Below are positions 7,308 through 40,658 of a DNA stretch of 48,610 nt, piece after piece; position 1 is the first letter of the stretch, and each line of letters opens with the position of its first letter. The stretch comes from Desulfurococcales archaeon. Its GTDB lineage: Archaea > Thermoproteota > Thermoprotei_A > Sulfolobales > Ignisphaeraceae. The DNA lies in the NCBI GenBank assembly GCA_027037025.1, contig JALWBS010000005.1, positions 1 through 48,610 on the forward strand. The letters are read 5' to 3'. The notes beneath the pieces were generated by a model. That model was not told where the DNA came from. It searched no databases and saw only the letters and a program-made list of their open reading frames with translations. The position numbers and the translations under genes are program-made.

Positions 7308-7370
7308 ATGGGTCTGAAGCGTGCGGGGATATATGGCGGAAACGCGCGTTTTCACGGAGGTGCGGGGAGC

Positions 7371-8015
7371 GTGTCGAGCGGGGAGATCGTGCTGGGCTAC
7401 GCTAGGGTGAGCATCGCGAGGGAGGATCTCGCCAACCAAGAGACGGCGATTAGGGAGCACTGCGAGAGGAAAGGCTACCGCTTGCTGAAGGTGTTCCACG
7501 ACGTGGTGACCGGCACGCTCGACCCTATGGAGAGACCCGGATTCAGAAAAATGATTGAGTACGCGACCGAGCTGGGGATTCACAAGGTTGTTGTATTCGA
7601 TGTTTCTAGGCTTGGTAGGAGACTCGTTGAGGTGGTTAGGGCTCTCAGCGAGTTGTATAAGCGTGGAATAGTTGTTGAATTCGTTAGGCATCCCGAGCTC
7701 GACACAACTAATCCGGTGATATACAACACGTTGATCCTCGCGTTCACGCTAGCGGCTGAGCTGGAGAGGGAGGCGATGAAGGAGAGGATGGAGGCGGCTA
7801 GAAGAGCCGGTAAGAGGGTTGGTAGGAAGCCGACTTCGATTCCATGGGACTTGGTGGAGAAGTACCTTTCGAGGGGGCTAAACATTAGGGAGATATACAA
7901 GATCTTGATCGCCGACGGCTACCTGCGATACAAGCAACGTGGTGAGGAACGTGTTCTGAGCTACGAGCAGTTTCGTAGAAGGGTAAAGGAGTTTATCGAG
8001 TCTAGGAGGCGGTAG
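7371..8015 (+). CDS. serine recombinase (resolvase/invertase family)
   Basis: GYARVS catalytic-Ser motif, VVVFDVSRLGRR, and a C-terminal HTH (LNIREIYKIL). Start re-called to GTG 7371, preceded by GGAGGTG at 7356..7362. The ORF-track start is 7308. Confidence 0.85.
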   Translation: MSSGEIVLGYARVSIAREDLANQETAIREHCERKGYRLLKVFHDVVTGTLDPMERPGFRKMIEYATELGIHKVVVFDVSRLGRRLVEVVRALSELYKRGIVVEFVRHPELDTTNPVIYNTLILAFTLAAELEREAMKERMEAARRAGKRVGRKPTSIPWDLVEKYLSRGLNIREIYKILIADGYLRYKQRGEERVLSYEQFRRRVKEFIESRRR

Positions 8016-11305: not shown

Positions 11306-11748
11306 ACCGTTAAGAAACCCATTTTGTATAGGGTGGCTTGAACGGCGGTTCTTATAATCGTTATGGTTTTTATCTTCGCGAACCTTTCCTTGTCTCTTGG
11401 GTGCATTACCCGTACTTGGTCTCCCAAGATGTTGTGTAGGTTCCTCATTATCCAGTTGAATACCTCGTCGAATAGATAGAGCTTTTTCCTAAACTCTCTC
11501 TCAGGTGGTCTAAGCATTGGGAACTCCCTTCTCAGGATCTTGATCACGTTATTTACGTACTCTGCTTGGGCTGAGGGTATCCAAGTAGCTATCGCGGCTA
11601 CCTCGGTCTCCATTCTCCTAGCTATCGCCTCCTGCTGTTCGAGTGTTGGAGGAGAGCTGAACTCTATTGCTAGTAGGGTCAGTATCATGGACTCTATGAA
11701 GTTCCTTCCCAGAACAAGTCTATGTCTTGGTCTCTCCTCGGTGCTCAT
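11302..11748 (-). CDS. hypothetical protein
   Basis: First ATG at 11748 (ORF-track TTG at 11757). Overlaps the neighbouring genes by a few nt. Confidence 0.5.
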   Translation of the reverse strand: MSTEERPRHRLVLGRNFIESMILTLLAIEFSSPPTLEQQEAIARRMETEVAAIATWIPSAQAEYVNNVIKILRREFPMLRPPEREFRKKLYLFDEVFNWIMRNLHNILGDQVRVMHPRDKERFAKIKTITIIRTAVQATLYKMGFLTV

Positions 11749-12682
11749 CCTTTCCAACCTTCTCCCTCAGCTTCTCGATCTTCTGCTCCTCGATTTTCGG
11801 CTGTAGCTCTAGGATCTCCGACACGAAGCTCAGCCTCCTCCTACCTAGCTCCCTCCTCGACTCCACCATGTTCATCCAGATTTTGTTCGGCATCTTCAGC
11901 GTCGGTATGTAGGCATCGATCATTATCGGTCTCCTAGTCCTCCTCCTCTCGTACTCGTCCCTTCGATACACCTTCATCAGATCGACTATGAACCCATCGA
12001 TCTCCGCCTCGGTTGCGTGGATAACGATATCGACTATCTCCCTCATCCTAGACGGAATGGCGTTGAAGTTCCTCGCGGTCATGATCAGCGCTCCGCACCA
12101 ATCCTTTAGCTGGTCGAGGACCGAGAAGAGGTAGACCCAGTACATCTCCCCTAGATGCATCCAGTACTTCGATATCTGCGCACCTACGTCGTCGAGCAGT
12201 ATGACTGGTGCCCACTTGCGGTTCTCAACAAGCTCCTTAGTGAAATCAACGAATCTCTTCGGGTTGAAGAACACTAGGTTTGATACGTAGGAAATCGCGG
12301 TTTGGTAATCGTAGCCAATAAGCATTAGCGCACCTATCATTCCAGCAACTGCGTAGCTAGTCTTGCCGCTCCCACCAACGCCGACGATCGCTATGGTTAC
12401 GTGCTTCCATAGGTTCCTCATTCTCAGAACTATTCTCTCCGCGATCAACGACGCGAGCAGGCACTTCGGCGCGTACTCCTCCATGGTTATGCTAGGATCT
12501 TCGTATCTATGCGTCGGTAGAAAACCGTAGTAGTTCTCCAGCGTCGCAACCATCTCTCGGTAGTTCAGCTCTTGATACATTCTAGCCAGTTCGAAGCACA
12601 TTCTCTTAACTTCGTGAGCGTGGTCGAGAACCTTGGTAACTATGTAGCCGACACCGCTCATCCTATCCATGAGAACCATCAT
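11720..12682 (-). CDS. P-loop NTPase (Walker A/B)
   Basis: Walker A GVGGSGKTS and Walker B VILLDDVG. The ATGATG start overlaps the stop of 12679..13254, and GGGTGAG lies immediately upstream. Confidence 0.8.
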   Translation of the reverse strand: MMVLMDRMSGVGYIVTKVLDHAHEVKRMCFELARMYQELNYREMVATLENYYGFLPTHRYEDPSITMEEYAPKCLLASLIAERIVLRMRNLWKHVTIAIVGVGGSGKTSYAVAGMIGALMLIGYDYQTAISYVSNLVFFNPKRFVDFTKELVENRKWAPVILLDDVGAQISKYWMHLGEMYWVYLFSVLDQLKDWCGALIMTARNFNAIPSRMREIVDIVIHATEAEIDGFIVDLMKVYRRDEYERRRTRRPIMIDAYIPTLKMPNKIWMNMVESRRELGRRRLSFVSEILELQPKIEEQKIEKLREKVGKDEHRGETKT

Positions 12683-13254
12683 CTCACCCTGATTACACAC
12701 CCTATCTCTATTTCTTTGTCTAGCTTGTGAAATATGCATGCGTACCTAATCGGAGGGGTTATCGCCTCTCTTATCGGGCTGATAATGTCGTCGGCTACGA
12801 TTGCTGAATCGGCTCTCGATCTAATCGCGTCTCTATAGGTCTTGAAAACGGGTTGTAGTATCGGGTGCTTCCTAAGTATCTTGCTGTTCAGATCCTCGGG
12901 GCACGTATCTATCGTGGGTATCCGTACGTAGATCGATCTCCAGACGAAGCTGGAGGAGCTAACCAATCCTAGGAGTAGCGACATGTCTATGTACATTCTA
13001 GACCTTGGTGGGAGGCATATACCGAACTTATCGCCTATGGAGACGTAGTAGTTGCCGTACCTAGCCTCTCTACACGTGAAGCCGTATTTCTTCAATAGCT
13101 TGACGCGCTTGAAGAGTATCGCAATCGCTTTCTCGGCGCAGAGCAACCTTCTTAGCTCTAGCCACCTTCTTATCCTAGTCAATATTGCTGAGGTAAGCAA
13201 TCCGGCAAATTTCCGTATCTTGGATATTACCTCTCCCAGTTTCAATGTGCTCAC
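12679..13254 (-). CDS. hypothetical protein
   Basis: GTG start overlaps the TGA stop of 13251..14090 (GTGA), suggesting translational coupling. Confidence 0.5.
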   Translation of the reverse strand: MSTLKLGEVISKIRKFAGLLTSAILTRIRRWLELRRLLCAEKAIAILFKRVKLLKKYGFTCREARYGNYYVSIGDKFGICLPPRSRMYIDMSLLLGLVSSSSFVWRSIYVRIPTIDTCPEDLNSKILRKHPILQPVFKTYRDAIRSRADSAIVADDIISPIREAITPPIRYACIFHKLDKEIEIGCVIRVR

Positions 13255-17778: not shown

Positions 17779-18066
17779 CTACCACCTCATCTCCAGCGCT
17801 ATGACGATTATCGACAGCGCTATTAGGAGCGCTATGGAATAGGGGCACGAGAGTATGTTCGCTATCCAGAATATGATTGCGTTGAGAATAGATAGAAAGC
17901 TGTTGAAAATCATTCTTCCCTGCGTATGCCTATCGATCTCGTTCATTGCATAGGTTGTTTGGTAAGCAAAGAACCTCAGTACGTAGACTATGATGGAGAA
18001 GGATACGAGGGCTATGAGCGCGACGAGCATAAGCTTTCCAACGCTCCACTTCTCGTTCCCCATCAT
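17779..18066 (-). CDS. small membrane protein (95 aa)
   Basis: Three hydrophobic segments. The ATG overlaps the stop of the 1493-aa gene. Confidence 0.6.
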   Translation of the reverse strand: MMGNEKWSVGKLMLVALIALVSFSIIVYVLRFFAYQTTYAMNEIDRHTQGRMIFNSFLSILNAIIFWIANILSCPYSIALLIALSIIVIALEMRW

Positions 18067-21000
18067 ATCAGCCTTAACCTCTCCCTCTGCACTCCAGCTC
18101 CTCCAAACCCAGCTCCTCCACCAGCACCTATTCCTAGGCTGGGTATAGCTATTTGCACAGTGATCGGCGCCTGTGCCTGCGGTGTGGTGCCAGCCGATCC
18201 GTACTTTGTTGGTGTCGGAGGTGGTGGGAGTACTGGAGTTGTTAGGTGGTATGGAACCGACGTTACTTTGGGCACGCTTATCGTTCCTATGCGCGGCACT
18301 ATCGATGTTGGTACCTGAATGTTTATCGGTGTTATTACGCCTACGTCCACGCCGTTGATGTTTATCTTCGGTATCCTTATCGTTAAGCCGTTCAGCGAGA
18401 TGTTGATCGTCCCAACGATTTTCGGCGCTAGCTTGCTCAGATCGCCGACCGCTATCACTATCGGTGTCGTTATCTGGGGTAGCTTAATTGCGAAGAGGGG
18501 GACGACGCCTATGTCCTTGAACGCCTCCGCGATCTCTGTGGGTAGGCTAGCTGGTTTTGCCATGGACACGATCTCTTCGAATTCCTGCGGAGAGATCATG
18601 AACTGTTCAGCGGCTCTCAACTCGCGTTCTCTCCACACCATCAGCGGGTAGATCATTGCTAGGAACGGTATTGCGTCTAGGAACCTCAGCGCGTATCTCA
18701 GAAGAGATGACACTCCGCGTCTTATCACAATGACTCTGCTAAGATCATCGAACTCCGGATCTATCTCCCTAATCACATCGATTGCTCTCTCGTGCGATAG
18801 CTCGTCGAAGATCTTTCTAAGATGCGGATCCCTCTCGATGACTCTCCTCAGCTTTGGATCGATCTCCACAGTAACGTCTCTGTACCAAGTGGCTTTCCTA
18901 CCTCTCCTAGCTATGATGTGGTTCCGTACCCTAATCTCTATGTATCCAGCGTTCGGTATCTCAACTCTCCAGATAAGCTCGGTTCCGTCTCTCAGCGGAA
19001 TCATTCTCCTCTTAACAACTATTCTCAGACCATCGATTGTTACTATCCTCGTGTCCCATCCCTTGAGTAGCTTCTCGACCTCGAACGCGATTGATTTCGG
19101 AGCCGCTATCATGGTTCCTTCGCGTACGGTTCCAACCTTCTCGATCACGATGTAGTTGTTCGGGATCTCCGGCTCTTCCTCAACGATTTTCTCAAGCCTT
19201 CTAGCGACGAGCGCTAGATCCTCCGCTAGATCTCGCGCAATGGCAAGTTCGAGCTTTCCGCTCTTGGTAAGCATCCTTATCCTATCTATAACGCTTCTGA
19301 GCCCAGCCAAGATCCTGTTCTTAGCCTCGATCGTTATCGGCACGTACCTGAGCTCGCTCTCTATACTTTCTAGCTCCCTCAGTAGCTTAGCGATCTCCGT
19401 CCTAGACACCGGTTCTCCCTTCCTCATCTTCTCAACGACGGTGTTCACAGCGTTCACTAGCTTCCCAACGACTTCCTTCAGCTCCGGCGAGACCTCTTCG
19501 AGCGATCTAACGGTTTCAGCATAGAACTTCACAACGTCTTCTAGGTTCTCGGTTATCGGCACGATCCTGCTCATAACCGTTCTAGACACCGAGATCTTCT
19601 TGGCTAGATCCTTGAGCGTTGATACGAGCGGGCTTCTGGATCCGAAGAGCTTCTCGGCGAGCGAAGCTAGTCGCATTATCTCTTCTCCGGTGAAGTACGT
19701 TGCTATTACGGGGCTCGCATTCGCTAGCTCTTCGAAGACCTTGTTCAAGGCATCCACCGTGACGATCTCTCCCTTCCTAAGCTTCTCTACGATGCTTCGA
19801 ATGGCGTTGAAGTCTATGTCTGGGCACACCTTCTTCAACTCCTTTTCTAGGGATAGAATCTTCTCCAAGTCCTTCGCTAGAGCCGACGCAAATATCTTCT
19901 CGGCTTCGCTTCCGCGAACAACGATGTTCTCTATCGTTCTGACTCGGGTGAGGAACGGTCGTAGCGGTTCTAGTGCTTTTGCCAGCGATTCTATGGATGA
20001 CTCCAGATCCTTGATAGCCTCTCTAAGCTTCGTGAATGCGAAGAGCTCGCGCTCGGTCTTCGAGGACAGCGCCTTGGCTAGCTCATTGATTGCCTCTACG
20101 TATCTACCTTCTTTAAGTAGTCGGAGAGCGTCTGGTGATAGTATCCGTAGCTCAACGGCTTTTCTGATAACCGAGGTGATTAGGGCTCTCAGAGGCTTTC
20201 TCTTAGCTACCTCAATTCCTTTCTCTAGCTCTTCGTACACCTTCCTCAGGTTCTCAACGGCTTTCTCGACTTCCTTGGCTTGCCTAAGCGATTTCCTAGC
20301 CTCGGAAAGGACTTGATCAACTATCTTCCTCAGCTCGGGGGGTAGGAACCCTAGGTGCTGAGCTAGCTCCTTCTCGGCTTCTTCCACGGATCTTATCAGC
20401 GATGTGACGTGACGGATCTCGAACGACGCCTTCTTAATCTCTTCGCTTGCAGACTTTACTTTTTCGAGCGTTTGCAGAACCTGCTTACGGATAAGAACGT
20501 TTTCGTGGCTCAGCGACCCCTCCATCTCTTTGAGAATCGATGATATTCTCTTCGATAGGTCTTCAATCGTTGAAACGGCGCTCTCGATCATTCCCTTGTA
20601 CTTAATAAGCTCGCTGAAGCTGTTCGAAATGCTCTTTATCACCGCTTCGGCGGCTTCGTTGCCTAGAATGTTTCTCAAGTCTGTGAGGCTCTTTATTCTG
20701 GAGCTCTTGGATATGAAGTCCAGTATAAGCGCTCGCTTAACGTCTTCGGTGAGCTTGATCCCTTCCTCTGCAAGGGCTTTGGTAAACGCTTTTCCTAGGT
20801 TCTTCTCAAGTTCTTCGCTTGGAAGCTCGTGGAATACCCTCGATATCTCTCCGGGTTTCGCCTCTATCGTAGCTCTCATAACTCTTGCAATGCTTCTCAC
20901 ACCGCTTTCGATGGCTACAGACAGTGGTGTGAATGGATCTCCCGTGAGTATCGACGATACTACCTCCGATAATCGGTATCCAAGACCTAGCCTGCTCAGT

Positions 21001-22544
21001 ACCTCGGGTAGTGCAAATCCTAGCAGGATCATGCCAGCGTTTTCGAGGGCTTCCATAGGTGTTCCAAACATTCCTTTCAAAGCGTTGGATAGCTCGGTCA
21101 CCGCACCGTTTATGTCTCCAACAACCACGTGGTTGTAGGCACGCGAAGCGATTTCGAACATCGATTTCAGAGCTTCGTAGACGTGTAGCGGAGAGATGCT
21201 ACTTAGCACGAGCGCGATCGCTCCAGCTCCCAGCTCCGCTATCGAGCCGATTATGGCTAGCGGTAGTCCCCACCACTCCTTGTTTATGTTTCTAATACCT
21301 GCTAAGAAAGCTAGCCTAGTTTGGTCAAGTAGCGAGTTGATCGCTCTCTGAATGTCTTCGTACCACACCTTTAGGGGGGAGCCCGTGTATGGGCTCTGGA
21401 TGGACATACCCGCTTTCCTAAGGTAGTCGATGAGAACGTCGTAGAACCTAGGATCGATCTTGCACGCTTCCATAACTACGTCGGCTAGCCTAGACTTTAT
21501 CAATGCGCTCATCTTCTCTATCGAATGAATCAGCTTCCTAAGACCTTCGACCAGCTTGGCATCGGTTATCGAGTTGAGCTCGGAGTACGACCAAGCAATG
21601 TCGTTCTCCAGACGGTTCCAAGCTTCGTCAAGCTTCTCAGCTGTTCTCTTGAGGAGATCGACGTAGTTGCGGTTACCGAGTACGTAGCCCTTGTTCGGAT
21701 TGTACTCGTTTATTACGTGGACTAGGTTCGCTACCCACTGCCACAGCTCCATCAAGTCGAATAGTAGCTTTGCATAGATCTCGGAGGCGATCTCCGCGTT
21801 TCTCAATCTTTGAAGCAAGGAGTTTGCGTATATATCAACAACTTTCTTAGCGAAGTCGCTGAGAGTAATGCCTTGCTGGCTAGATACTCTGGTTACATCG
21901 ATTAGTCCGTAGATCATGGAGTTCCTCCATTGCTCCACCTCGTTGATCAAGTCCCTTATCCTGCTAGGTACGTTAATCGCTAGGCTAACTAACATCGTCA
22001 AGTCATCCAGAGAATCGATGCTCGTGTTGTAGATGTTCATCATGCTCCTTAGCTTGGAGTTGATTTCCTTCGTTAGCTTCTTGTAGCTCTCAACAATGGT
22101 CTTCAGAACCGTGCTCCACCTAGCTAGGTCTCTAAGCGCGTTGGATACGGTGCAGTACTTTGTTTCCAGACCTAGGTCGGCGGCTATCCTATCTATCTTG
22201 TTCGCTAGGTCGTTCACTACGCTTGCGTTGTTAGCCACGTTTATGAGATCCTCAACGGTTTTCGCCTTAGAGAATATCTCCTTTGCGTACTTCAGCAAGC
22301 TACGTAGCTCCTCTAGCTTCCTTATCTTCTCAACGTAGCTCTCCGCCAATGGTGGTAGCAGATCGTTTGCTTCGAGCTCCTCAGCTATCTCTATCGCTTT
22401 GCGGAACTTCCCTTCGCTAACGAGCTTCTGAATTACGTATGCTCCTAGATACTCAAGCACCTCCTTGCGCCCCTGCTTAGGTAGAGATTCGATCATCGAG
22501 ACTAGCGGCGAGGGATCAAGCTTCGCGGCTTGCATCGTCTTCAT
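18063..22544 (-). CDS. giant coiled-coil / membrane-associated protein (1493 aa), putative virion or scaffold/tape-measure-like component
   Basis: 4.5-kb uninterrupted ORF with long charged helical stretches. Internal hydrophobic segments (WWGLPLAIIGSIAELGAGAIALVL; IPFLAMIYPLMVW) and a Pro/Gly-rich C-terminus. GGGGTGAG just upstream of the ATG. Confidence 0.85.
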   Translation of the reverse strand: MKTMQAAKLDPSPLVSMIESLPKQGRKEVLEYLGAYVIQKLVSEGKFRKAIEIAEELEANDLLPPLAESYVEKIRKLEELRSLLKYAKEIFSKAKTVEDLINVANNASVVNDLANKIDRIAADLGLETKYCTVSNALRDLARWSTVLKTIVESYKKLTKEINSKLRSMMNIYNTSIDSLDDLTMLVSLAINVPSRIRDLINEVEQWRNSMIYGLIDVTRVSSQQGITLSDFAKKVVDIYANSLLQRLRNAEIASEIYAKLLFDLMELWQWVANLVHVINEYNPNKGYVLGNRNYVDLLKRTAEKLDEAWNRLENDIAWSYSELNSITDAKLVEGLRKLIHSIEKMSALIKSRLADVVMEACKIDPRFYDVLIDYLRKAGMSIQSPYTGSPLKVWYEDIQRAINSLLDQTRLAFLAGIRNINKEWWGLPLAIIGSIAELGAGAIALVLSSISPLHVYEALKSMFEIASRAYNHVVVGDINGAVTELSNALKGMFGTPMEALENAGMILLGFALPEVLSRLGLGYRLSEVVSSILTGDPFTPLSVAIESGVRSIARVMRATIEAKPGEISRVFHELPSEELEKNLGKAFTKALAEEGIKLTEDVKRALILDFISKSSRIKSLTDLRNILGNEAAEAVIKSISNSFSELIKYKGMIESAVSTIEDLSKRISSILKEMEGSLSHENVLIRKQVLQTLEKVKSASEEIKKASFEIRHVTSLIRSVEEAEKELAQHLGFLPPELRKIVDQVLSEARKSLRQAKEVEKAVENLRKVYEELEKGIEVAKRKPLRALITSVIRKAVELRILSPDALRLLKEGRYVEAINELAKALSSKTERELFAFTKLREAIKDLESSIESLAKALEPLRPFLTRVRTIENIVVRGSEAEKIFASALAKDLEKILSLEKELKKVCPDIDFNAIRSIVEKLRKGEIVTVDALNKVFEELANASPVIATYFTGEEIMRLASLAEKLFGSRSPLVSTLKDLAKKISVSRTVMSRIVPITENLEDVVKFYAETVRSLEEVSPELKEVVGKLVNAVNTVVEKMRKGEPVSRTEIAKLLRELESIESELRYVPITIEAKNRILAGLRSVIDRIRMLTKSGKLELAIARDLAEDLALVARRLEKIVEEEPEIPNNYIVIEKVGTVREGTMIAAPKSIAFEVEKLLKGWDTRIVTIDGLRIVVKRRMIPLRDGTELIWRVEIPNAGYIEIRVRNHIIARRGRKATWYRDVTVEIDPKLRRVIERDPHLRKIFDELSHERAIDVIREIDPEFDDLSRVIVIRRGVSSLLRYALRFLDAIPFLAMIYPLMVWRERELRAAEQFMISPQEFEEIVSMAKPASLPTEIAEAFKDIGVVPLFAIKLPQITTPIVIAVGDLSKLAPKIVGTINISLNGLTIRIPKININGVDVGVITPINIQVPTSIVPRIGTISVPKVTSVPYHLTTPVLPPPPTPTKYGSAGTTPQAQAPITVQIAIPSLGIGAGGGAGFGGAGVQRERLRLI

Positions 22545-34189: not shown

Positions 34190-35926
34190 TTATGGATTTA
34201 CCTCGATCACTTGTAGCTGAACAGCCATGTCGTACCCGTTCAAAACGTTGTGCAGGGATATGGCTAGGCTGTTATCGACTACGAAGGTTAGGGTTATCGT
34301 CGCGTAGTAGTAGTAGCTACTCACGCTTATTGGAATGGTTTTCGAAGCTCCGTCGAGGTATATAGTCATCGAGTCGAAGTCCGCCCAATCCGTGGTTATG
34401 GACACTATCACTACTCCGTGCCAGCTGATGTTGAGGATGGTCGTGGTGGATCCATCGGATGTGAGAACCGAGTATATCCTTATGCCGCTAAGCTTCGATA
34501 GGAAGTCCTTGTTGATCGCGTAGTGGGTAGCCAAGCCGTATGGATAGATCTTGGCTACCTCGTGGTACGTAGCCCCGTTGTCGTTGGTGTAGCGAAACAC
34601 CATCGATCCGTCCGGGTAGTAATCTATCTCCCAGCCGCTACTCGTCGATGATATGGATCCCCATCTACCTCCCTCCGTGAGCCGTAGGTAGTCGGTGTAC
34701 ACCGCGTTAGCCCTTATGCTACCCGCTACGTCGAGCATGTACTGCGGATTGGTCGTTCCTATACCGACGTAGCCGTTGGGTAGCCACGACATCACCGGAG
34801 TGTTGTTGGCTAGGATGCTCACCCTAGCGTTGTCCGGGAAGTAATCGAAGTGCCAACCCGTTGGCTTTCCTCCCTCGGTTATCGAGAAGTAGTCTGCGAG
34901 AACGCTCGCACCAATCGCTCTGATATCACCCGCAACGTCTAGTCGGTACTGCGGGTTGTCGGTTCCTATACCGACCTTTATGTAGCTCGGGTTGTTGCTG
35001 AAGTACACCAAGCCGCTGGGGTTGTAGGAGCTCCAAGCCGGGTGGATTATCATTGCAGATCCGTTGAACTCCAGATCGTTGTCAGCGCCGAAGAACATCT
35101 TGAAGTACCTACCGCTAGGTGTACACACCATTAGTGTGCCAACGACCTCCAGATTGGCTCTGGGAGAAGCCGTTCCGATACCAAGCTCGCTGACGTTGAG
35201 GATGGCGTGACCGTTCGCGTTGAGATCCTTCTCCAAGGTGTAGTACTTGATCAAGTCCCAGCTATCCACAACGCTCTTGTTATAGAAGTTCTGCTCTACC
35301 CACAGCCTCAGCGCCGATACGTTGCCGAGTATCAGGGAATCTACGCTTTGCCTAGGGTAGAACTCCTTCTCAGCCCAAGACATTACCTCTGAGACGTTTC
35401 CGAGTATCAGCTGATCGACCAGCGTCTTGTTGTAGTAGAGCTCCGCGATCATCGAAGCTAGCTTAGAGACGTTTCCCTCCACGTTGGTATCGACGTACTT
35501 CCTAAGATCGGCGAAGCTAGTGTTTAGGTAGCTCATTAATAAATTGACAAACTTACTGAAGTTCTCGTCGAACTCGTTCTTGAGCTCGGTCACAGCGTTG
35601 TCAATATAGGTAATAACCTCGCTCTTGTTTCCGAGCACGTTGGTATCGACGTAGCTCTTCGACGCCGCGAACCTAGCTATCTCCATATCGATAGCCTTGT
35701 CGAGCTCCATGCCGTTGTAGTACGTCTCCTTAGGTAGGTAAACCCCGCTTAGGTTCAGAACCAGTAGCGTCTTGTAGTAGGTGTAGTTGAACCACTTTAT
35801 GTAGACGCTGGAACCGGATTGGTAGAAGTATATGCCTCCGCTACTCTGCGCAAGTATAGCGGTTGCTATGATTATCCCGCTGAGCACGAGGGATAAGGTA
35901 GATACTATCAATGCCTTCCTATCCAT
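34190..35926 (-). CDS. tail-fibre-like / receptor-binding-like glycoprotein
   Basis: ATG 35926 (ORF-track TTG 35944) and an N-terminal anchor. Four YVDTNVxGNxSxx-type repeats and three IGT-x2-P-x3-L(E/D)V-x-G repeats (IGTASPRANLEVVG, IGTDNPQYRLDVAG, IGTTNPQYMLDVAG). Confidence 0.7.
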   Translation of the reverse strand: MDRKALIVSTLSLVLSGIIIATAILAQSSGGIYFYQSGSSVYIKWFNYTYYKTLLVLNLSGVYLPKETYYNGMELDKAIDMEIARFAASKSYVDTNVLGNKSEVITYIDNAVTELKNEFDENFSKFVNLLMSYLNTSFADLRKYVDTNVEGNVSKLASMIAELYYNKTLVDQLILGNVSEVMSWAEKEFYPRQSVDSLILGNVSALRLWVEQNFYNKSVVDSWDLIKYYTLEKDLNANGHAILNVSELGIGTASPRANLEVVGTLMVCTPSGRYFKMFFGADNDLEFNGSAMIIHPAWSSYNPSGLVYFSNNPSYIKVGIGTDNPQYRLDVAGDIRAIGASVLADYFSITEGGKPTGWHFDYFPDNARVSILANNTPVMSWLPNGYVGIGTTNPQYMLDVAGSIRANAVYTDYLRLTEGGRWGSISSTSSGWEIDYYPDGSMVFRYTNDNGATYHEVAKIYPYGLATHYAINKDFLSKLSGIRIYSVLTSDGSTTTILNISWHGVVIVSITTDWADFDSMTIYLDGASKTIPISVSSYYYYATITLTFVVDNSLAISLHNVLNGYDMAVQLQVIEVNP

Positions 35927-35983
35927 ACCCAGCACCGTAGTCAATTCAACGTTTCGAGATCAAAAAGCTTTGGAGAAATAACA

Positions 35984-37818: not shown

Positions 37819-38724
37819 CTACGCACCGGGTAGCCTCTTCTCCAACAGCATCTCGGATGCTAGCCTAGACATATCTCTGAAAACGTCGTAGTTCCTAGTC
37901 TCCGCAACGACCCTAGTAACGCTCTGGAAAGCCGTTGCCAAGCTATAGCCGTGCTTCTGCACGAACCTTCTGTAGCTCGACCTAAGTATGTAGGCAACGT
38001 ATCTAGGAACCTTCGCGGCGATGCCCTCTATCCAATCGTCGAGCTCCTGCGGCGAGAGCTCTATTCTAGCTAGCTCCGAAACCGAGTCGATTATCCACGT
38101 AGCCTCGTCGCTGAGCTTCGCAACCACCTCGTCCACGGCGCGGATAACGCTGAGCAGAACCTTCCGTAGCTCGCCTCGGTGCACAGTCCTCACGCTCGTA
38201 GCCATCCAGTTAGCGAGCATCTCGTTGCCGCACTCAGCGAACCTAACGATTGGATACACCTTTATGCTGTGAACACCGGTGTTAGCGTTCGAAACCGCGA
38301 CGTAGAACACGTTGTCGAACACCGTAACCACCCTCCACAGAAACACCGTTCTAGCGCTGAACCTCTTCACGTGATCCGGCTCGGCTTCTAGAAACCTGCT
38401 AACGGCATCGACGAGTATACGGTGAGGAACAGCCACGTAGCTATCGCTCGTAGCCCTAACAACGTAGAGCGCGCCGTCGAACATAACTAGGCATCTCAGC
38501 ATGAGGGGCTTCCTACTCACGCGCTCTATCAACGCCTTCTTGAATCTATCCGGGTTGCTAACCACATTGCTTCTACTCATGTTCACCAATCGCGCGAGCT
38601 GCGAGTAGCTACGTCCTTTAAACACGATTCTGGTACCATCCTTCGTCACGACGATGCTCCTCCTATACACAGTTACGGAGTCCACCCTATCCAGAACGAA
38701 GTCTACGAACGTGGGTCTCTCCAT
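37819..38724 (-). CDS. hypothetical protein (301 aa)
   Basis: ATG 6 nt downstream of leader motif 38731..38745. Confidence 0.65.
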   Translation of the reverse strand: MERPTFVDFVLDRVDSVTVYRRSIVVTKDGTRIVFKGRSYSQLARLVNMSRSNVVSNPDRFKKALIERVSRKPLMLRCLVMFDGALYVVRATSDSYVAVPHRILVDAVSRFLEAEPDHVKRFSARTVFLWRVVTVFDNVFYVAVSNANTGVHSIKVYPIVRFAECGNEMLANWMATSVRTVHRGELRKVLLSVIRAVDEVVAKLSDEATWIIDSVSELARIELSPQELDDWIEGIAAKVPRYVAYILRSSYRRFVQKHGYSLATAFQSVTRVVAETRNYDVFRDMSRLASEMLLEKRLPGA

Positions 38725-38730
38725 GGATCT

Positions 38731-38745
38731 CCCCCGTGGAAAAAG
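38731..38745 (-). promoter_or_regulatory. cassette leader motif copy
   Basis: Minus strand: CTTTTTCCACGGGGG-agatcc-ATG(38724). Confidence 0.75.
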
Positions 38746-38771
38746 AGGGCAGAGACTATAGTTATGGTCAT

Positions 38772-39893
38772 TTATGTTCGTTTTAGTCCTTTTAAGGCTA
38801 TGAGGTATGCTGATGCTGTGTGGCGATCAAGACCAAATCTCTTCATGATCTCGTCATGTTCCCTAGAATGCGTTGTGCCCTTAGGATCGACGTACCTCAC
38901 CTCCATAGCGTAGAGCGGTGCTTTCCACGCTATTCGCTCTATGATTGAGCTTCGGAACATCGAGACCTTCCAGTTCCACTTCCTCCCCCTTCTCTCACCA
39001 TTGCGTATCCAGTAGTACCTGAGATACCCAACTATCTCCGGGTTTTCCAGGAATATCGTTGAGACACCTGCGTGGTAGAGCCACTTCAGCATTCTGTGGA
39101 TTACCTCGCCTATGATGCTCCAAGCCCTCTTCCTCTTAACGCCCATGTGAGCCGCTCCATCAAGCCAGAAGGTTCTAATCATCCTGAGCTTACCGCCGGG
39201 AGAAACCACGGCGACGTCGAGACGATCAACGTTGACGTCTATCCCTGCAACGATGTCGCTGAGTGGATCGTCGTATCGCTTCATCACCTGGTAGTAGAGC
39301 TGGTAAGGCACCATAACTTGCATCTCACCAGCAACATGAAGACCATACTTACCCATTCCGTAGTCAGAGATGTAGATCCTTGCGGGGTAGCCAACGCGCT
39401 TGGCATTCGCCTCCGATATGAGCGTCTCGAGTAGTCGTCTGTACCCCTTCGGCACGACGTATCTGAGCTCTACAGTATCCGAACTCTTGTCGTACCAGAA
39501 GGTCAGAACCCTGGTTCTGCCTAGATCCACGAGCCTTATGTTTAGGTTGCCCCTAGCATGGGGCTCCCCATCGCTCTGAAACAGCAACCATTCCTTGAGC
39601 TCCAGATCCCGTACGTCGACACCCAGCGCTTTTGCGCTACGAAGCGTTGACCACACGAGCTTGAGCACCCCATCGACGTAGCGCCTATTAGGAAGCACAT
39701 CGTAGCACCTGGATCTCATAGCCTTGAGGAACCGCGTCTCAGGAAGCTCGGCTAGCACAAGCTCGCTCTTCACGACCATCAGCACGCGATGAGCAACGAT
39801 CTTCGACAGCCAGGCAGTGGAGAGCAGTCGCGAAGCGACGAGTCCATTCGCGTGGAAAGGCAGAGCAATAGTGACATACCTCGGGCTCTTCAC
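38772..39893 (-). CDS. tnpB: TnpB/OrfB-like RuvC-fold protein lacking the usual zinc finger
   Basis: Candidate RuvC triad: GIDVNVD, IFLENPE, GLDRHTASAYLIA. 373 aa. No CxxC...CxxC between the second and third motifs (VDPKGTTHSREHDEIMKRFG). GTG start about 21 nt downstream of a palindromic TATA. Confidence 0.65.
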   Translation of the reverse strand: MKSPRYVTIALPFHANGLVASRLLSTAWLSKIVAHRVLMVVKSELVLAELPETRFLKAMRSRCYDVLPNRRYVDGVLKLVWSTLRSAKALGVDVRDLELKEWLLFQSDGEPHARGNLNIRLVDLGRTRVLTFWYDKSSDTVELRYVVPKGYRRLLETLISEANAKRVGYPARIYISDYGMGKYGLHVAGEMQVMVPYQLYYQVMKRYDDPLSDIVAGIDVNVDRLDVAVVSPGGKLRMIRTFWLDGAAHMGVKRKRAWSIIGEVIHRMLKWLYHAGVSTIFLENPEIVGYLRYYWIRNGERRGRKWNWKVSMFRSSIIERIAWKAPLYAMEVRYVDPKGTTHSREHDEIMKRFGLDRHTASAYLIALKGLKRT

Positions 39894-39907
39894 GCTTCCC
39901 GACCATA

Positions 39908-39921
39908 GGGTATATATACCC
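39908..39921 (-). promoter_or_regulatory. perfect 14-bp palindrome GGGTATATATACCC (TATA box candidate for the TnpB-like gene)
   Basis: Centre lies about 21 nt upstream of GTG 39893, compatible with a leaderless or short-leader mRNA. Confidence 0.5.
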
Positions 39922-39941
39922 GAGAGTTATTAAACGTTGTA

Positions 39942-40021
39942 GTGACCCCCGCTGGCTCGCTGACCCCCCGGGATGAAGGGGCTGGCGGGGAGAAACCGCT
40001 GTGAACCCAGCTAGGCGACCC
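39942..40021 (-). other. GC-rich non-coding block upstream of the TnpB-like gene (possible structured RNA, IS end or protein-binding array)
   Basis: About 80 nt, visibly GC-richer than its surroundings. CCCCGC...GCGGGG can pair. Three copies of GTGA(A)CCC(CC) lie at 39942, 39961 and 40001, echoing the ATG-proximal part of the cassette leader. Confidence 0.25.
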
Positions 40022-40054
40022 TAAAAGAACCTAAAATATTGGGAATGACCCTAG

Positions 40055-40282
40055 CTAGGGGAGCGGTTGGGTACGAACCCGCTCTATCCTCAGCTTTATG
40101 TTTTCCTCTACGCAGTCGTAGAAAGCTGTAGCCTCTCTACACAGCTCGATCTCGTCGTAGTAATCCGGCTTCACGACGTAGACATCTCCGGATCGAGTCT
40201 TTATCACCACTTCGAACTCGCTTATCTTAACGCTCTCAACGTCCTTGAGAACTATGTCCCTATCGAGTTCGAGCACAGCCAT
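40055..40282 (-). CDS. hypothetical small acidic protein (cassette-array gene, 75 aa)
   Basis: ATG 5 nt downstream of leader motif 40288..40304. Confidence 0.6.
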   Translation of the reverse strand: MAVLELDRDIVLKDVESVKISEFEVVIKTRSGDVYVVKPDYYDEIELCREATAFYDCVEENIKLRIERVRTQPLP

Positions 40283-40287
40283 GGAAA

Positions 40288-40304
40288 CCCCCGTGAGAGA
40301 AAAA
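40288..40304 (-). promoter_or_regulatory. cassette leader motif copy
   Basis: Minus strand: TTTTTCTCTCACGGGGG-tttcc-ATG(40282). Confidence 0.75.
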
Positions 40305-40337
40305 TGTTTATTGGGGTTTGAGAACAGGGCATCGTAC

Positions 40338-40658
40338 TCACTTCGCCTTTCGCTCGCTGGCGCAGATCTCCTCTATCCTGCGCCTAACATCTTCGTGGAT
40401 CTCTAGCTTGGCTTCGACGTTGCACAGCGTTTCGAACATGTTGTCTAGGCACGTGATTAGATCGGTATCCCCTTTCTTCGCCGCTCTGTAGCACAGCGAC
40501 GCCATCGATAGGGTGCAGAGGTACTCCAACGTACCCTCTCTCTTCTTTTTCATCTCTGCTATCTCCCACAGGTGCTTGCACAGCGGGTGATCCTTAGCTT
40601 CTTCACATGCCTTCCTAGCGTTGAGAGCTATTTCATAGGCTAGGTTCGGGGGGATCAT
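40338..40658 (-). CDS. hypothetical Cys-rich helical protein (106 aa)
   Basis: Starts 3 nt after the stop of 40661..41392. Third gene of a motif-led three-gene unit. Confidence 0.55.
   Translation of the reverse strand: MIPPNLAYEIALNARKACEEAKDHPLCKHLWEIAEMKKKREGTLEYLCTLSMASLCYRAAKKGDTDLITCLDNMFETLCNVEAKLEIHEDVRRRIEEICASERKAK

Follow-up and report, generated by a model that had tools for sequence, protein, structure and literature searches.

A mobile archaeal element pairs a zinc-finger-less TnpB-like nuclease gene with a structured antisense RNA, its probable guide

Cas12 nucleases descend from TnpB, which is also a source of very small genome editors. In the characterized TnpB systems of IS200/IS605 elements, a transposon-associated motif (TAM) is found 5' of the left end and the flank on the 3' side of the RNA-bearing end supplies the guide, so that the resealed donor consists of TAM plus target. 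Five major TnpB clades have been defined (Altae-Tran et al., PNAS 2023; PMC10691335). One of these, RIIIr-4, has lost the C4 zinc finger and has exchanged the RuvC-III Asp for His; its hosts are archaeal, both crenarchaeal and euryarchaeal, and its occurrence in viruses has been noted (PMC10691335). RIIIr-4 includes the archaeal RHH/MazE-TnpB group, which was read as a possible toxin-antitoxin pair and whose members are non-mobile; their guide was presumed to lie within a long 3' untranslated region (PMC10691335). Here, we analyze a TnpB-like nuclease gene without a zinc finger, located at 38772..39893 on the minus strand of a 48,610-nt stretch from a Desulfurococcales archaeon (contig JALWBS010000005.1, hereafter the window). 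For the zinc-finger-less His clade, one of the five major clades, we know of no guide RNA. The overall reading that we favor, and hold to be probable, is that of a stand-alone IS-like element in which a TnpB of the RIIIr-4 type has as its guide a separate, outward-reading RNA of ~125 nt.

The gene encodes a protein of 373 amino acids, whose translation contains the motifs GIDVN.DR, LENPE and LDRHTASAYLIA and in which D219, E283, D356 and H358 are conserved. Conserved columns were taken from an alignment of 36 diverse homologous sequences (alignment A1), which also served as the input of an AlphaFold (AF2) model. In A1, E283 is invariant, and D219, N221, D356 and H358 are nearly so, with H358 kept in at least 90% of the sequences. 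The segment between RuvC-II and RuvC-III of the window protein holds no Cys at all, and neither a CxxC pair nor a CxxC...CxxC finger is found there in any of the 36 homologues. The model (pLDDT 92, pTM 0.85) shows the bilobed WED-REC-RuvC fold common to Cas12f. Foldseek matched it over its full length to Cas12f, Cas12k and TnpB, with E values of 1e-9 to 1e-7. VIA-align comparisons, which span residues 4-373, gave a Z of 20.9 with Cas12f (9i8y; 312 residues aligned), 17.5 with the ISDra2 TnpB (8exa; 291 residues, rmsd 3.8) and 15.7 with the ISFba1 TnpB (8iaz). A preliminary description of this locus had called the protein TnpB-related and its zinc finger lost; the full-length TnpB/Cas12f fold (Z 15.7-20.9) and the absence of the finger from the window protein as well as from the homologues bear out both statements, and its coordinates, including those of the TATA box and of a GC-rich upstream block (~39941..40021), agree with the sequence.

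That description had also listed three plausible RuvC motifs. GIDVN.DR and LENPE stand, but DRHTASAYLIA is not a canonical RuvC-III. When PDB sequences were searched with a profile, 'lDrHtaSAYlIA' paired with 'IDADVNAAINIA' of a Cas12, its 'DAD.NAA' motif, and by this alignment His358 occupies the position of the third catalytic Asp. The Asp-Glu-Asp triad of RuvC is thus incomplete: D219 and E283 are kept, the third position is His358, and the conserved D356 lies two residues before it. The window protein carries both RIIIr-4 traits, a His at RuvC-III and no C4 zinc finger, and would belong to the RIIIr-4 kind, as assigned by these two traits rather than by tree position. Because it has both, its zinc-finger loss is an already published character of the clade. 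Papers on a divergent or upstream guide RNA for TnpB did not turn up in our literature searches.

Searches of curated models with the single protein gave no match in the Pfam-A copy used (which was without PF27229), including OrfB_IS605 and OrfB_Zn_ribbon, just an 11.5-bit stretch to Cas12f2 in NCBIfam, and nothing usable in PHROGs or among PDB sequences. PF27229 is the precomputed label on all of the homologues that we found. A word-indexed collection contained 821 relatives, from Desulfurococcales, other Thermoproteota, Thermococcus/Pyrococcus and Archaeoglobaceae, and an exhaustive search returned 182 representative clusters of relatives. Scans of IMG/VR with the TnpB-like family and with two neighboring viral proteins yielded no relatives. 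The other two 373-aa ORFs of the window, considered as possible relatives of the TnpB-like protein, are unrelated to it.

To define the element, we used a scan of species-representative genomes, which gave 56 loci, many of them at contig ends and several per assembly; the flank, fold and promoter statistics below are from 33 loci. Across these 33, conservation begins at CCG(T/C)T and ends just before CCC, the outer flanks are unrelated, and the elements range from 1,292 to 1,358 bp. The whole element in the window measures 1,317 bp (38750..40066, minus strand) and runs from its left end, CCGCTC at 40066, to its right end, ...CTCTG at 38750. On the gene strand, the left end is preceded by A in 31/33 loci; CCC follows the right end in 30/33 and is also present in the empty sites of relatives. 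In the window, this target-derived CCC (GGG on the plus strand; 38747..38749), which adjoins the element on the 5' side of the RNA strand, is a predicted TAM-like motif. The right end extends only 22 nt beyond the stop codon (38750..38771, minus strand); with the last codons included, it has a weak similarity to the left end in inverted orientation, and in the nearest relatives (L002, L107, L108 and L124) it is kept up to ...TCTG, with divergence after CCC. As described earlier, 47 nt separate the stop codon (38772-38774) from the next ATG (38724), with a leader motif at 38731..38745.

The family is mobile and multi-copy. Nine carrier genomes, all of hyperthermophilic archaea, have 2-11 matches each (5-11 in five of the nine), and two copies that are 95-97% identical, in different genomes and different contexts, have exactly the same limits. 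For one Thermococcus-type copy (L032), we recovered the orthologous site in seven genomes of the same genus; it is occupied in L098 and empty in L097, L099 and L102. The empty sites read ...ATCCA^(T)CCCTAACC..., which gives A^CCC as the target, with no target duplication. CC is common to both joins, so that any of three adjacent points may be taken as the join. Insertion beside a short specific sequence without duplicating the target is a trait of the IS200/IS605 kind, and we regard it as practically certain that this is an IS-like element with a TnpB-type protein. The element is intact, since its ORF and all conserved residues are whole and the family is multi-copy; together with the empty sites of a relative, this contradicts the suggestion in the preliminary description of a decayed or domesticated IS. 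The search for further copies that it had proposed thus uncovered a multi-copy family, and target-site duplications were not found at the orthologous sites of L032. Elsewhere, a 1.8-kb insertion splits the TnpB-like gene of a copy at L044:1183-3000 that is 95-97% identical to the Ignisphaera element L031.

At the left end, upstream of the gene, lies an outward-reading RNA scaffold (39941..40066, plus strand, antisense to the gene), identified by a covariance model (R1), by strand asymmetry and by covariation. Read along the antisense strand, the loci have in order a TATA box, a spacer of ~23 nt, GGUGACC (or GGUGGGC), hairpin P1, GAGAAA, the invariant junction CCGUGAUGAACC, hairpin P3, (G/A)AACGG and the element edge, with (G/A)AACGG pairing back to CCG(U) of the junction as helix P2. 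In the window, all on the plus strand, P1 is a long GC-rich hairpin at 39947..39990, in which the fold contains the CCCCGC/GCGGGG pairing pointed out previously; the 5' arm of P2 and the conserved junction, with its invariant columns, occupy 39995..40007 (consensus CCGTGATGAACC, window CCGCTGTGAACC); P3, recognized by its fold and by compensatory changes in its stem, is a terminal hairpin with a long AT-rich loop at 40006..40060; and the 3' arm of P2, at 40062..40067, ends at the element edge, its last base, 40067, being target-derived. The GC-rich block was found, and is conserved, at every locus with sufficient upstream sequence. The 3' limit of the scaffold is the element edge, and in all loci conservation falls to random beyond it.

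The fold energies favor the antisense strand. The window block alone folds at -52.7 kcal/mol (z -2.7), which none of 200 shuffles reached. Against dinucleotide-shuffle controls, the 33 loci have a mean z of -4.77 for the antisense and of -3.07 for the sense strand; antisense folding is the better of the two in 30/33 loci (Wilcoxon p 6e-9) and lower in energy in 33/33. A 13-bp helix of group A that is homologous to P1 has three invariant G-U pairs and compensatory changes at 5/13 pairs, and the invariant G-U pairs again point to the antisense strand, because the gene strand would have C-A mismatches in their place. R1, which was built from group A alone and thus from distant relatives of the window copy, finds that copy at 39941..40069 (+) with 48.1 bits and an E value of 4e-8, confirming that the GC-rich block is real, and has it as the sole match in the window's genome. 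At E <= 0.01, 31 of its matches are antisense to the gene and one is sense.

The preliminary description had proposed to check homologous loci for covariance. In these, the block is conserved and its structure covaries. Compensatory changes occur at 7/26 pairs in group A and at 7/35 pairs in group B; in these groups 96-99% of paired cells can pair, compared to 33-56% with the partners slid, and none of 500 shuffles reached the covariation score of either group. In an alignment of 44 matches fitted to the model, all 26 of 26 pairs have compensatory changes, though this alignment is biased toward the fitted structure. P2 covaries from CCGU/ACGG to CCGC/GCGG in the window, L003 and L024, and the P3 stem has compensatory differences between the window and its nearest relatives L002/L108, and also within other groups. 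RNAalifold on a single MAFFT alignment of the 33 loci gave P2 only, because hairpin lengths vary among groups, and was replaced by group-wise alignments and the covariance model. Taken together, we consider a structured antisense RNA very likely.

The junction may hold a further feature. GUGAUGA, combined with a GA that precedes the 3' arm of P2, may adopt a k-turn consisting of a stem, a 3-nt bulge and tandem G-A/A-G pairs; as read from the alignments, this fits most groups, while AA is found instead in many copies of group A and in some of group B. A canonical box C/D, considered for the GUGAUGA motif, was ruled out as there is no CUGA partner. Rfam gave no match at the gathering score for the whole window, nor at E <= 5 for 38400-40400, and ARAGORN found no tRNA, so that the block is not a tRNA attachment site. 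In two loci (L023:2850-2994 and L033:2840-2973, both plus strand), we also observed a second scaffold-like module, of another subgroup and in the sense direction, between the promoter and the ATG. It is additional to the normal antisense scaffold at the end, is absent from the close relative L020, and may be a solo-scaffold insertion or a rearrangement. A second strong scaffold match at L028:5642-5737 (minus strand; 58.6 bits), 1.5 kb downstream of the element, is probably part of a neighboring copy cut by the end of the locus.

The scaffold is preceded by a conserved promoter-like arrangement. A or T stands at positions -29..-26 from the scaffold start in 94-100% of the loci, with a purine-rich stretch resembling a transcription factor B recognition element (BRE) just upstream, the archaeal BRE/TATA geometry, by which transcription would begin at the scaffold's first bases. 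In most loci, the mRNA has a TATA box of its own, a second one that is palindromic and closer to the gene. The window and L002 have a single palindrome, which sits at the -27 position for the RNA. The window's box (39908..39921) is centered ~27 nt from the scaffold start and ~22 nt from the GTG start codon, from which it is separated by 16 nt. As the one palindrome stands at the proper place for the RNA and ~22 nt from GTG, it is probably a promoter for both directions, and the mRNA would be leaderless. The strand asymmetry, together with the position of the promoter, led us to reject a 5' leader or RNA on the sense strand.

On the RNA strand, the whole locus reads GGG / right end, reverse complement of the gene, promoter, scaffold / T-flank. 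We read the block as a candidate guide-RNA scaffold because the order of GGG, element and flank matches the layout of TAM and guide, while a sense RNA reading from the right end would leave one conserved base (A) on the TAM side. In the mechanism that we propose, an RNA of ~125 nt would be transcribed from the BRE/TATA promoter on the opposite strand, away from the gene and past the element edge into the flank, and would serve as a guide RNA with the scaffold at its 5' side and a flank-derived guide at its 3' side. The predicted guide segment in the window (40067..40086, plus strand; length assumed from known TnpB guides) is viral flank, antisense to the end of the ORF at 40055..40282. Precise excision would leave an empty site of GGG plus guide-matching flank, that is, TAM plus target; the nuclease would then cut the vacated site, and the element would return when the break is repaired from a sister copy, as in the retention or homing cycle of TnpB. 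This would be a variation on TnpB homing in which the RNA gene is inverted and at the opposite end. Of the options raised in the preliminary description, the best fit is the guide-like RNA in a 5' location: the block does lie on that side of the gene, but its RNA is on the opposite strand, reads outward, has its own promoter and is not the gene's 5' region.

Guide function of the scaffold RNA is, in our judgment, rather probable. With chances only slightly better than even, we further propose that the outward RNA is the guide of the whole zinc-finger-less His-RuvC clade, encoded by a separate divergent gene opposite the gene's 3' end and possibly bound by L7Ae at the k-turn, and that the 373-aa protein is a heat-stable, GGG-directed programmable nuclease. 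Several points weigh against these proposals. Transcription, binding by the protein, guide function and the use of GGG as a TAM are all things that we infer from DNA, and our literature searches turned up no report of binding or cleavage for any RIIIr-4 member. With His358 in place of the third Asp, the protein may cut or may only bind, and nuclease activity is a prediction. GGG is a short motif, and its putative TAM role is read from geometry only. Finally, the conserved structure could act, alone or in addition, as a single-stranded DNA end for a transposase, and the weak inverted similarity of the two ends, which is atypical of IS200/IS605, suggests another transposase that reads both ends.

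The last two points lead to the strongest of the alternatives, in which the block is a transposon end at the DNA level, its single-stranded hairpins serve a transposase acting in trans (HUH/Y1-like or other), and there is no functional RNA. The block does lie at the very end of the element, and the element inserts beside a short conserved target without duplication, as IS200/IS605 does. There are also related sub-terminal motifs at both ends in inverted orientation: the terminal 40-50 nt of the window's group, like those of groups A and B, are inverted-similar, ends score higher with their own partner than across groups (p 6e-7; groups C-E excepted), and a doubled GACCTA-like motif is among the similarities in groups A and B. 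Even so, we regard this alternative as unlikely. A conserved BRE/TATA promoter is directed into the block at the right distance, the folded part, at 95-145 nt with three helices and a conserved junction, far exceeds known TnpA hairpins, and structure is found at one end only. Moreover, no Y1 (HUH) TnpA (PF01797) was detected in the window's genome and four multi-copy carriers, with positive controls and incomplete assemblies. The IS end with TnpA-type hairpins suggested in the preliminary description may be a second role of the block. As known TnpB ends combine a DNA site with an RNA part, the DNA role may hold in addition to the guide role.

Other transposases were likewise not tied to the family. 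IS607-type TnpA-TnpB pairs are present in 3/5 genomes checked; they have zinc-finger TnpBs, different ends and no scaffold motif. Among family members, an adjoining serine-recombinase TnpA was approached by one decayed copy only, 1.2 kb from a broken resolvase gene. This copy (L074; G002:C2:138604-142749) has one in-frame TAG, and the broken serine-recombinase gene is divergent from it; its neighborhood, the sole such case seen, is probably a mobile-element graveyard. The window itself encodes a serine recombinase (7308-8015, plus strand) with a resolvase domain (99.9 bits to PF00239) and a C-terminal HTH. We considered it as an IS607 TnpA, but it is not of that type and lies 30 kb from the element.

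In a second and still less likely alternative, a canonical guide is made from the gene's 3' end plus the right end of 22 nt, running on into the leader of the next gene, and the upstream block is an antisense or cis-acting regulator. All characterized TnpB omega RNAs are at the 3' end of the gene (PMC10691335), and the right end is kept to its last base. However, the last 130 nt of the element show no excess structure on the gene strand (mean z -0.39; 10% of loci below -2), and this layout would have the left flank, with its one conserved base (A), as the TAM side. Antisense control of the gene is also unlikely, because the upstream RNA and the mRNA do not overlap and have the promoter region between them.

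The surroundings of the element in the window are probably viral. PHROGs matches include a DnaA-like replication initiator (11720-12739, minus strand, E 3e-23) and tape-measure, tail and tail-fiber proteins, among them a tape-measure protein at 18063-22544 and a tail-fiber protein at 34190-35944 (both minus strand), and the contig is a probable tailed archaeal virus. The left end of the element overlaps the last codons of the ORF at 40055..40282 (minus strand; 75 aa), which now ends in ...TQPLP*, its last four codons (PLP and the stop) coming from the element. This ORF was probably truncated by the insertion, as the uninterrupted frame, joined by hand, would run ~15-20 codons further into the start of the next gene. 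At the other side, the right end abuts CCC, followed by the leader motif of the next gene. From its joins, the element looks like an insertion into a viral gene array, between two genes at A^CCC. A metagenome pattern search bridging the presumed empty site of the virus had no match, and the empty-site proof is that of the orthologous sites of L032. The viral 'cassette array' would thus be interrupted by an ordinary selfish insertion, with the element outside the viral program.

That the element is instead a domesticated or decayed viral remnant, with the GC block as a binding array tied to the cassette leader motif, is highly improbable: it does sit within the leader-motif gene array, and the string GTGAACCC also occurs in two leaders, but its ORF and conserved residues are all intact, the upstream ORF is cut off as by an insertion, and the same block with the same limits recurs in dozens of cellular genomes without such leaders. 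The regulator-binding array and the tie of GTGA(A/C)CCC to the leaders, both put forward in the preliminary description, do not hold up, as the window has 6 occurrences of the string where 2.7 +/- 1.7 would be expected, a count that 5/100 shuffles reach; its two copies within the block are the family-wide conserved scaffold start and junction motifs.

If the guide reading is true, then TnpB guides would not as a rule have to derive from the 3' end of the gene itself, and the absence of a found 3'-end guide for the RIIIr-4 clade would be explained. The arrangement would also offer a natural precedent for how an RNA of a transposon could become a guide gene with its own transcription, as with the tracrRNA and crRNA of CRISPR systems. 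With a thermostable enzyme of 373 aa, a defined scaffold, a predicted GGG motif and cultured carriers such as Thermococcus sp. M39 and LS2, Pyrococcus kukulkanii and Vulcanisaeta moutnovskia, the proposal would be directly testable.

Among described systems, the RIIIr-4 TnpBs, including RHH/MazE-TnpB, are the closest: they share the missing C4 zinc finger, the His for the RuvC-III Asp, archaeal hosts and occurrence in viruses. Unlike RHH/MazE-TnpB, the window element is clearly mobile, has only 22 nt after the stop codon, and has no small AbrB/MazE or RHH gene upstream of tnpB, nor any small ORF within the element; its structured RNA is at the other end and on the other strand from the putative guide in their long 3' untranslated region.

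Canonical IS200/IS605 and IS1341 TnpBs (ISDra2, 8exa; ISFba1, 8iaz) have the same fold and insert beside a short motif without duplication. Their elements likewise have an RNA scaffold that ends at the element edge with flank beyond it, and a far-end motif on the same strand, so that the excised site is motif plus flank. In the window, by contrast, the RNA gene points the opposite way from tnpB, under a promoter of its own, and the RNA is not cut from the 3' end of the mRNA; the protein has no zinc finger, a His for the Asp in RuvC-III and no match to Pfam OrfB; and, compared to canonical IS200/IS605, the carriers checked have no Y1 TnpA and the ends are weakly inverted-similar. IscB and its omega RNA, which belong with the IS200/IS605 relatives of Cas9, share a guide RNA encoded upstream of the nuclease gene, but there the RNA is on the gene strand with the guide at its 5' end, and the protein, with RuvC plus HNH, has an unrelated architecture. 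Cas12f (type V-F) is the best full-length structural match (Z ~19-21) and is of similar miniature size; the window element differs from it in having no CRISPR array, cas genes or zinc finger, and in its transposon-borne, single-guide layout.

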